Below, in pieces: positions 9,285 to 10,424 of a stretch of DNA of 12,518 nt; within the stretch, counting starts at the first letter, position 1, and each line of letters starts with the position of its first letter. The position numbers and the translations under genes are program-made. Below the pieces are notes generated by a model. It was not told where the DNA came from, did no database searches, and saw only the letters and a program-made list of their open reading frames with translations. The stretch lies in the IMG/VR virus record IMGVR_UViG_2526164688_000041; one strand, given 5' to 3'. The DNA is from a virus. Its lineage: Duplodnaviria; Heunggongvirae; Uroviricota; Caudoviricetes.

Positions 9285-9828
9285 GCATCACTGGAAAGTG
9301 GAAAAACAACCTGAGTGGTACGTGAAAGCTGTCAGAAAAACTATCGCGGCGTTGCCGGGAGGTTACGCTGAAGCTGCTGAGTGGCTGGATGTAACAGAGA
9401 ACGCTTTATTCAACCGCCTTCGTGCAGATGGCGATCAGATTTTCCCGCTGGGATGGGCAATGATTTTACAGCGCGCGGCTGGCACTCACTACATTGCGGA
9501 TGCTGTCGCACAGTCTGCTGGTGGGGTGTTTGTATCGCTTCCTGAAATTGAGGAAGTAGAGAACGCCGATATAAACCAGCGCCTGCTGGAAGCCATCGAA
9601 CAGATCGGGAGTTACTCAAAGCAGATTCGTTCGGCAATCGAAGATGGGGTAGTGGAGCCACACGAGCAGACAGCAATTAATGATGAGTTGTATCTGTCAA
9701 TTTCGAAGCTCCAGGAGCATGCAGCACTGGTCTACAAAATCTTTTGCGCTCCAGAAAAGAGTGACGCCCGCGAGTGTGCAGCTCCGGGCGTCGTGGCGTT
9801 TTGTGTCTGTGGAGAAACTAACGCATGA
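9277..9828 (+). CDS. CII-like / YdaT-like regulator (lysogeny-establishment position), function uncertain
   Basis: 183 aa. GTG start at 9277 with GGAGG SD 6 nt upstream, overlapping the cro stop by 8 nt. It occupies the position right after cro, where Rac/CP-933-type prophages carry ydaT (a CII functional analogue, from memory). Putative DNA-binding segment ..YAEAAEWLDVTENALFNRL.. Confidence 0.55.
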   Translation: MGKHHWKVEKQPEWYVKAVRKTIAALPGGYAEAAEWLDVTENALFNRLRADGDQIFPLGWAMILQRAAGTHYIADAVAQSAGGVFVSLPEIEEVENADINQRLLEAIEQIGSYSKQIRSAIEDGVVEPHEQTAINDELYLSISKLQEHAALVYKIFCAPEKSDARECAAPGVVAFCVCGETNA

Positions 9829-9973
9829 ACAGTTTAACGGCAAATAACCGTTTGTCGCAACAGCTGGTGGTCAGCGTCGCTGAACACCTGTTGTTACGGC
9901 ATGAATGCAGATTACCAAATCACCTGGCTGTAAGTAACCACAGAGAACTTTACCTGACTGTGGGGGGCGAGTT

Positions 9974-10153
9974 GTGCAGGAACTTAACCGCTGGTTTCGT
10001 GACGGAAGAGGGCTTTATGTCCATGTTATTCGTTGGGAGCCAGAAACACAGCGCGTTATCTATCTTCGCAAAGACTACCCGCATGAGTGCTTTAGTCCTT
10101 TGTGGAAATTCAGGCGTGATTTTGTTGAGTGTGAAGGACCACCAGCATATTGA
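9974..10153 (+). CDS. Candidate small protein (59 aa) in a frame different from the long 9825..10970 ORF
   Basis: Manual translation from GTG 9974 to TGA 10151-10153: MQELNRWFRDGRGLYVHVIRWEPETQRVIYLRKDYPHECFSPLWKFRRDFVECEGPPAY. Protein-like composition; a G-run precedes the GTG. Below the ORF-track cutoff and unverified. Confidence 0.3.
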   Translation: MQELNRWFRDGRGLYVHVIRWEPETQRVIYLRKDYPHECFSPLWKFRRDFVECEGPPAY

Positions 10154-10238
10154 TTCTGCAATTCCGGGACGTTACACTGCTCAGGCACCTTATAAAGCGG
10201 GTGCCGGGATTGGCGTCCTGAAATTCGCACATGCGCAT

Positions 10239-10261
10239 AACCGCGCTTCAGCGGTTTTTTT
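10239..10261 (+). terminator. Terminator-like hairpin (AACCGC-GCTTCA-GCGGTT followed by a T7 run) between the CII-like gene and Rha
   Basis: 6-bp stem with a 6-nt loop followed by TTTTTTT, flanked by the inverted pair GCGCA / TGCGC. Position is analogous to a tR-type terminator. Confidence 0.45.
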
Positions 10262-10424
10262 GCGCACGTTTCCTCACATCCAAATTATGGTGGGGCGTGC
10301 AGGGGCATCGAAAGATGCGCCGGGGTCATGTGCGACCGGTTACGCCAACCCTGTACGTCTCACCACCTCTGTGATTGGCGTCCCATGTGGTGAGTTTTCA
10401 AAATTCGCACATGAGGATGTCACT

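Follow-up and report, generated by a model that had tools for sequence, protein, structure and literature searches.

Within the 12,518-nucleotide stretch of virus DNA analyzed here at its full length (hereafter, the window; Caudoviricetes, IMG/VR record IMGVR_UViG_2526164688_000041), the interval at positions 9825-10424 is almost certainly an IsrK/C4 RNA module with its a and b target sites. As a whole, it is probably a P4-type RNA immunity module that lies within a lambdoid pR operon of a prophage, with ymfL on one side and the genes for Rha and replication on the other. Specifically, we identified two RNA genes, four sites complementary to one of them that covary with it among relatives, and two overlapping reading frames: a DUF4222 gene under purifying selection, and a long frame that begins at the ymfL stop codon, crosses the whole module and ends as Rha. 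Homology with the eta/kil region of satellite P4 and with the isrK locus of Gifsy-1 ties these components together. An earlier note on this DNA, made from the sequence, had offered three options: that two genes are fused, that a small gene is accompanied by a regulated terminator, or that Rha is controlled through repeated binding sites. All three are partly right and none names the mechanism; both RNA genes, and a second exact repeat (GATTGGCGTCC), had been overlooked.

All features of the window described here lie on the plus strand. The first RNA gene, at 10185-10261, matches the Rfam isrK family (RF01394) along the entire model (1-77 of 77; 62.3 bits against a gathering threshold of 50, E = 1e-11) and is an IsrK/P4 seqA-type small RNA that carries the a1 and b1 sites. 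It ends in an intrinsic terminator at 10239-10261, where an AACCGC/GCGGTT stem (10239-10256) is followed by seven T residues (10255-10261). A terminator scan picked up the same hairpin independently, although the scan by itself is not above chance, with 5 sites in the window versus 2.3 expected; the hairpin is significant because it is the terminal hairpin of an above-threshold isrK match, not because of the scan count. The T-tailed hairpin and the regulated terminator of the earlier note are, in this sense, one small-RNA terminator. The second RNA gene, at 10283-10370, is a C4/P4 CI-type antisense RNA (RF01695; 75.1 bits against a gathering threshold of 45, E = 1.5e-13, model positions 1-87 of 87), the Rfam family in question having been seeded on P1/P7 immI. 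The C4 fold consists of a long closing helix around two hairpins, with compensatory changes at 16 of its 27 predicted pairs in a set of 47 sequences that includes the window and P4. A hairpin loop, GGTCATGTGCGA (10324-10335), holds the b' sequence, TCATGTGCGA (10326-10335), and with it the reverse complement of the core of a 13-bp repeat found on either side of C4, while a' (ACGCCAA, 10342-10348) sits in the single-stranded 3' part of the RNA.

These two C4 sequences each find their complement twice, once within IsrK and once upstream of Rha. The exact 11-nucleotide repeat GATTGGCGTCC, at 10208-10218 and 10373-10383, supplies a1 and a2, and a' pairs over 7 nucleotides with the TTGGCGT in each copy (10210-10216 and 10375-10381). 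The 13-bp repeat AAATTCGCACATG supplies b1 (10221-10233) and b2 (10401-10414, the second copy starting at 10401). Specifically, CATGTGCGA in C4 (10327-10335) pairs over 9 nucleotides with TCGCACATG in b1 (10225-10233), and b' pairs over 10 nucleotides with TCGCACATGA in b2 (10405-10414), one base longer than with b1 and reaching two bases into GAGGA (10413-10417), the Shine-Dalgarno sequence of Rha. The two copies of the 13-bp repeat reported previously are exact, and the search for the motif elsewhere that the earlier note had proposed found no further copy in the 12.5-kb window, even with up to 2 mismatches. By count, the repeat is weak when taken alone (0.48 matches expected at up to 2 mismatches, with 15 of 200 shuffles reaching at least 2); its meaning comes instead from its complementarity to the C4 loop and from its covariation in other phages.

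That covariation was assessed in 120 viral contigs with a conserved C4 core, the loop being left free, which yielded 86 distinct modules (loop types). At the b2 position, a complement of at least 7 nucleotides to the module's own loop is present in 56% of the 86, versus 0.9% with the loops of other loci, and at the b1 position the corresponding values are 36% and 1.2%. Further, a' matches a1 in 81% of modules and a2 in 96%, compared with 8% and 11%, respectively, for the a' of another class. The same coupling is visible among close relatives, where b1, b' and b2 have been replaced jointly in DNA that is otherwise 91-95% identical (TCGCACATG in the window, TGATCAAGG in locus L002, whose cassette type has the C4 loop UUUCCUUGAUCA, and GCATACGG in locus L003), and in Salmonella phage ST64B, where a1, a' and a2 have changed together as a triple. 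These joint changes of b1, b' and b2, and of a1, a' and a2, therefore identify the repeats, on comparative grounds, as sites of RNA-RNA recognition by which the specificity of C4 is determined. The repeats thus bear on the control of Rha, as had been supposed, as pairing sites for C4 RNA rather than as sites for a protein.

Beyond the sites themselves, an alignment of window positions 10226-10424 with seven related loci (L002, L003, L084, L113, L119, L124 and L125) revealed that prophages at least 97% identical over 9825-10225 have the segment from b1 to the downstream start codon swapped for at least seven different cassettes. In these prophages, homology stops sharply at b1 and again past the module, and the swapped cassettes carry different nested genes, either of the Rha type or encoding a 77-amino acid protein with no Pfam match. 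This pattern suggests a recombinational exchange of RNA immunity specificities along with the nested genes. A further arrangement was seen on the reverse strand of L053 (IMGVR_UViG_2671181028_000005), where three tandem units of about 660 bp occupy approximately 1383-3361 in reverse-complement coordinates. Each unit is an Eta-like open reading frame (ORF) of 219-220 codons (1383-2046, 2042-2702 and 2698-3361), and neighbors are joined by ATGA overlaps. The core pattern finds C4 in two of the three, and these differ from each other in both the b' loop (GTTCTATGTTGA versus TTTCCGTATGCG) and the a' class; the remaining unit is recognized through similarity only; the array looks like a stack of immunity modules. 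Finally, when 10185-10440 is folded at minimum free energy, a hairpin forms over 10376-10422 in which GGCGUCCCAUGUG, on the a2 side, is paired to CACAUGAGGAUGUC, which comprises b2 and the Shine-Dalgarno sequence; the Rha ribosome-binding site may, in this predicted fold, already be sequestered in cis.

The long frame (9825-10970, 381 codons) opens at ATG 9825, which overlaps the ymfL stop codon (TGA 9826-9828, within GCATGA at 9823-9828). It then passes through the DUF4222 gene (in another frame), a candidate internal promoter, IsrK, C4 and the a2/b2 sites, and, after 200 codons, reaches Met 10425 (codon 201) in frame and ends as Rha; the overlap and the 200-codon read-through are as the earlier note had described them. 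The frame is free of stop codons in all 17 distinct homologues, including SfV, ST64B and sal3, running from the ATGA overlap into whichever gene lies downstream, and it is still open in Salmonella phages at 80% identity. All 49 distinct stop triplets in the alignment fall in the other two frames, which has a probability of (2/3)^49 = 2e-9 if the events are independent. In addition, all four indels in the homologue alignment are multiples of three (6, 3, 3 and 3 nucleotides), and the phase is kept although the b1-to-terminator and a2/b2 segments have effectively been replaced between cassettes. At the same time, variable sites in the RNA part of the frame are flat across codon positions, with no codon periodicity, and the encoded residues differ at every place where an RNA loop or a compensatory stem pair differs. 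Hence, as judged from these comparisons, the long frame is kept open without amino-acid constraint.

The overlapping 59-amino acid ORF (9974-10153, GTG start, +2 frame relative to 9825) behaves in the opposite way. It matches PF13973 (DUF4222; E = 9e-14, 51.1 bits against a cut-off of 27) and is annotated by the Prokaryotic Genome Annotation Pipeline (PGAP) in an identical prophage of Escherichia coli O55:H7 DEC5D. Against Salmonella homologues at 80% nucleotide identity, its ratio of nonsynonymous to synonymous polymorphism (pN/pS) is 0.13-0.14, versus about 2 in the other two frames, and third codon positions hold 16 of the 28 variable columns. In this comparison, it is a real, independent protein-coding gene under purifying selection that overlaps the long frame. 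The small gene suspected in the protein-like peptide is real, then, and the homologue comparison that the earlier note had called for separates the two frames: purifying selection on DUF4222, and openness only for the long frame.

The layout of the interval can best be understood by comparison with P4, in which the elements follow in the same order. The isrK model matches P4 seqA and the C4 model matches P4 CI, and a long ORF (eta/ORF199, 8812-8168) crosses both RNAs and ends, in frame, as kil (MATTLTPSHPEF...), as the window frame ends as Rha. The start of ORF199 (gcATGAtg) overlaps the orf88 stop codon just as the long frame (gcATGAac) overlaps that of ymfL, and in both elements b2, which is part of seqC in P4, adjoins the nested gene's Shine-Dalgarno sequence. 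The two nested genes also begin alike, with similar, C-rich N-termini (MATTPTQTHP in Rha, MATTLTPSHP in Kil), a likeness confined to about the first 10 residues. Several features set the window apart. First, its host element is a lambdoid prophage, so that the upstream promoter would be pR, whereas P4 has PLL. Second, the coupled upstream gene is ymfL rather than orf88/alpA, and the nested gene encodes a 181-amino acid Rha-domain protein rather than the 65-amino acid Kil. Third, the window has the DUF4222 gene embedded in another frame, and its a and b specificity sequences differ from those of P4. As PMC10111431 summarizes the work of Forti et al. 1999, P4 transcripts from a constitutive promoter inside eta terminate early through CI and seqA interactions, and Kil is translated only on occasional read-through. 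According to the same summary, only transcripts of the upstream late promoter give full-length Eta, by coupling to the alpA homologue, and its translation prevents termination, so that downstream genes are transcribed (PMC10111431).

The Pfam family PF10554 (Phage_ASH, the "Ash protein family") offers a second line of comparison. It matches the long frame over amino acids 117-211 (nucleotides 10173-10457; E = 5e-15), which makes the frame a member by score, and the matched region coincides with the isrK, C4 and a2/b2 nucleotides. On P4 Eta (locus L127), the match covers amino acids 37-161 (8704-8330) and again takes in the RNA module only. The PF10554 profile thus corresponds to a translated isrK, C4 and a2/b2 module and, therefore, reflects conservation at the nucleotide level. 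PF10554 served as the profile for epsilon in one survey of P4-like satellites (PMC8628076). In our profile search, P4 epsilon matched PF25738, and not PF10554; that survey may have been detecting the immunity RNA region.

An antisense RNA with a two-part target is also familiar from P1/P7 immI, where, in the 1990 work of Citron and Schuster, C4 is reportedly processed from the transcript of its own target, recognition involves both a' and b', b2 lies over a ribosome-binding site and a few bases set the specificity. In the immI order (c4, icd, ant), the icd ORF separates C4 from the antirepressor gene and its ribosome-binding site is the b2 target. The window, in contrast, has no icd-like ORF between the two: the ORF list and the sequence both lack a separate ORF between 10370 and 10425, b2 stands right at the Shine-Dalgarno sequence of Rha, which takes the place of Ant as the regulated gene. 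Another related system is the Gifsy-1 locus of Salmonella (isrK, orf45/STnc1160, anrP), with which the window shares 71% identity over 209 bases of the isrK-C4 module, an IsrK with its terminator, a C4-like RNA, identical a1/a2 repeats and a', and a b2 site adjoining the Shine-Dalgarno sequence of a gene for a Bro-network regulator. Gifsy-1 differs in its b specificity and in having no long upstream frame; its AnrP has an ORF6N domain rather than a Rha domain, and the locus follows antQ rather than a cII-like gene. Experiments in Gifsy-1 have established promoter activity, read-through of the terminator, a processed STnc1160 RNA and post-transcriptional control (PMC4825925).

Positional homology with P4 and Gifsy-1 also points to a candidate internal constitutive promoter at 10150-10178 (TTGATT 10150-10155, a 17-nucleotide spacer and TACACT 10173-10178), read from the sequence, with a predicted transcription start at about 10185. 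A sub-threshold c4-a1b1 match at 10172-10224 aligns its -10 with the TATAGT of P4, and Gifsy-1 carries TTGACA/TATATT at the equivalent position. We infer from positional homology, which is all that the promoter assignment draws on, that 10150-10178 is the positional equivalent of P4 PLE and Gifsy-1 PisrK. At the other end of the module, the start of Rha is C-rich and G-poor: the tract at 10420-10459 contains 17 C and 2 G, and the 40-nucleotide stretch beginning at 10428 ranks at the 99.6th percentile of the window for its C/G ratio. By analogy, this tract would be a candidate site for Rho entry, positioned like P4 timm, which has been placed at X51522 8365-8209, just inside kil (PMC3177188). 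Otherwise unrelated nested genes share similar first 10-12 codons (MATTPTQTHP, MATVPALT and MATTLTPSHP), of the ACC/CCC type (window 10428-10459; P4 8357-8330), and what is conserved here may be a C-rich tract for Rho loading, not the protein.

By analogy with these systems, we propose the following model. In the lysogen, in which pR is repressed, transcripts would start near 10185 from the internal promoter (about 10150-10178), and most of them would stop at 10261, giving a 77-nucleotide IsrK/seqA-like RNA with a1 and b1. Those that read through the terminator would contain the C4/CI-like RNA (10283-10370), whose a' and b' would pair with a2 and b2, covering the Rha ribosome-binding site; because b2 adjoins the Rha Shine-Dalgarno sequence, pairing there would block Rha translation. 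As in P4, the untranslated, C-rich start of Rha would then be left open to termination by Rho, with the result that neither Rha nor the replication genes beyond it would be expressed, and immunity would extend to incoming phages of the same a/b specificity. After induction or infection, pR transcripts would carry ymfL, and ribosomes ending ymfL would re-initiate at ATG 9825. By reading the long frame across the terminator, C4 and a2/b2 and on into Rha, these ribosomes would allow pR transcripts to escape both the terminator and C4, a bypass that would be the counterpart of eta translation on P4 PLL transcripts. Four steps of the model are thus predicted, namely use of the promoter, processing of C4, termination by Rho and translation of the long frame; for the last of these, we lean toward translation as an eta-like bypass, with less assurance than for the RNA-immunity assignment itself. 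IsrK may, by analogy with Gifsy-1, also act in trans, which would not be exclusive of a P4-type model.

Several observations weigh against this P4-type model or its individual steps. First, the Gifsy-1 work gives IsrK an activating role in trans, which a simple P4 model does not predict (PMC4825925). Second, the whole-sequence duplex energy of C4 with a2/b2 is not significant, 200 of 1000 mononucleotide shuffles being as good, whereas IsrK in the same test is significant (2 of 1000); it is for this reason that positional covariation is used as the evidence for the sites. Third, the candidate promoter matches the consensus at 8 of 12 positions and is absent from the calls of a consensus scan because that scan requires 9. 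Fourth, the E. coli homologues are closely related, so that the open-frame statistic does not come from fully independent events. Fifth, the long frame has a pN/pS of about 2 over the DUF4222 overlap, with no constraint at the amino-acid level, and its value of 0.35-0.47 over 9825-9971 is uninformative next to 0.44-0.47 in another frame. Finally, about half of the C4 modules elsewhere, Gifsy-1 among them, have no long frame, and such a frame is therefore not obligatory for the module.

Among the alternatives, Gifsy-1-type activation survives best, although we consider it unlikely to be the better account, and it could coexist with the P4-type model. Here, short IsrK acting in trans would remodel the read-through transcripts and turn on translation from AUG 10286, at the 5' end of C4, to give a 227-amino acid Rha. 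The conserved module and the identical a1/a2 repeats and a' are in keeping with this possibility, which has an experimental basis in Gifsy-1 (PMC4825925), and AUG 10286 occupies the position of the first AUG of orf45 and leads through 46 codons, with no stop, in frame into Rha. Yet Gifsy-1 orf45 ends at an ATGA overlap with anrP, a case of translational coupling, whereas the window has no stop after AUG 10286; the arrangement therefore differs, and there is no clear Shine-Dalgarno sequence upstream of 10286. Among 50 modules, the phase of the 5' AUG of C4 relative to the downstream ATG is distributed as 27, 15 and 8, so that the in-frame arrangement is lineage-specific rather than universal.

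Less likely still is that the RNA module is real and the long frame is never translated. Only the 181-amino acid Rha would then be made, openness would be a by-product of GC-rich structured RNA and close relatedness, and control would operate as in P1 immI or Gifsy-1 with no bypass. The lack of amino-acid constraint and codon periodicity, the many C4 modules (that of Gifsy-1 included) with no long frame, and the fact that Rha has its own Shine-Dalgarno sequence and ATG all favor this explanation. Against it, none of the 49 stop triplets falls in the frame and all four indels preserve the phase, even in the highly variable b1-to-terminator and a2/b2 segments, and the frame has stayed open in the more distant Salmonella phages. 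In the viral set, long frames that cross the module and begin at an ATGA overlap, preceded by an ORF no shorter than 80 codons, are found repeatedly, and next to several different upstream genes. The same overlap is present in P4, where eta translation was shown to matter (PMC10111431). A count of upstream openness over at least 80 codons in 45 distinct modules (18 in the gene's own frame, 10 and 7 in the others) likewise supports an open frame, although it is confounded by start-codon calls.

That the long frame is a functional "Ash-Rha" fusion, its N-terminal 200 residues a selected protein domain, is highly improbable. The PF10554 score, the conservation of the frame as open and the full-length ORF called by the annotators of SfV, ST64B, Ayreon and sal3 would seem to argue for a fusion. 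However, the PF10554 match is made up of isrK, C4 and a2/b2 nucleotides, the residues follow changes in RNA loops and stems, pN/pS is near 2 where the frame overlaps DUF4222 and variable sites are spread evenly over the three codon positions; the Gifsy-1 study, too, finds the nucleotide sequence of the stretch conserved and its amino-acid sequence not (PMC4825925). Thus, the gene fusion of the earlier note holds as architecture, with a frame open into Rha and homology to P4 eta, and fails as a conserved protein domain; the homologues do not exhibit a conserved, N-terminally extended Rha under purifying selection. Least credible of all, and rejected here, is that the 13-bp direct repeats, which lie 180 bp apart and flank the regulatory region, are operators for a DNA-binding protein such as Rha, YmfL or CI, since the C4 hairpin loop that they flank contains their reverse complement and changes in step with them in other phages, and since no further copies occur in the window, the cI-cro operator region included.

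The gene upstream of the long frame (9277-9828), which the earlier note had called CII-like, matches Phage_CP76 in Pfam (E = 6e-15) and the YmfL equivalog in NCBIfam (169 bits against a cut-off of 90); it is YmfL/Phage_CP76 and not lambda CII in the strict sense. Downstream, the short nested form of Rha (10425-10970, 181 amino acids) matches PF09669 over amino acids 21-106 (E = 7e-33, 113.5 bits against a cut-off of 29.9) and TIGR02681 (114 bits against a cut-off of 46). Rha does have its own Shine-Dalgarno sequence, as had been proposed; the domain itself begins 20 amino acids after Met 10425 rather than at it. Rha is followed by a 74-amino acid ORF, a gene for an HTH_36/DnaD_N replication protein (11188-12027) and a PerC-like gene, which are among the genes that would stay silent under the proposed model.

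The interval is widespread, with matches in 1490 of 5426 complete E. coli genomes (about a quarter), 966 of them over at least 80% of its length. The DEC5D prophage mentioned above (locus L001, NZ_CP038386.1) is 100% identical to the window over 9825-10424, and PGAP annotates in it a "Rha family" gene at 2759-3646 (window 10083-10970) that starts at an internal ATG within the DUF4222 gene and spans both RNA genes; over that stretch, the record lists no RNA features. Other records annotate the region as an "ash family protein" or as an "immunity region" coding sequence, and a 2022 survey of Stx-phage regulatory regions listed the Ash domain without known function (PMC8951638). For ST64B (locus L124), whose homologue of the interval is 80% identical, a transcriptome study reports high expression, upon shock with peroxide or nitric oxide, of an uncharacterized non-coding RNA, STnc1310, and of two genes downstream of the CI repressor (PMC7067206). 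It might be that STnc1310 is the homologue of IsrK or of C4.

The underlying mechanism has already been worked out in P4, P1 and Gifsy-1, and nothing categorically new is implied by its occurrence here. What is new is the setting: the module belongs to a lambdoid pR operon, a DUF4222 gene lies within it in another frame, and the nested gene is Rha. For annotation, the reading presented here clears up a recurring problem, that of the "ash family protein" or N-terminally extended Rha, and marks PF10554 as a translated RNA module. More tentatively, and with less confidence than for its individual parts, we suggest that about 600 bases may be multi-tasking, as messenger RNA for two overlapping frames (one Eta-like, coupled to ymfL and serving ribosome transit only, and one encoding DUF4222), as a promoter, as two small RNAs and as four RNA target sites, and that the cassette may provide lambdoid and Stx-type ("Eru") prophages with a second layer of immunity over Rha and the replication genes, one that is based on RNA and freely exchanged. 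Taking the interval as a P4-type RNA immunity module would give Rha and the downstream replication genes a concrete post-transcriptional control, and it predicts RNA-based heteroimmunity classes among otherwise near-identical prophages.

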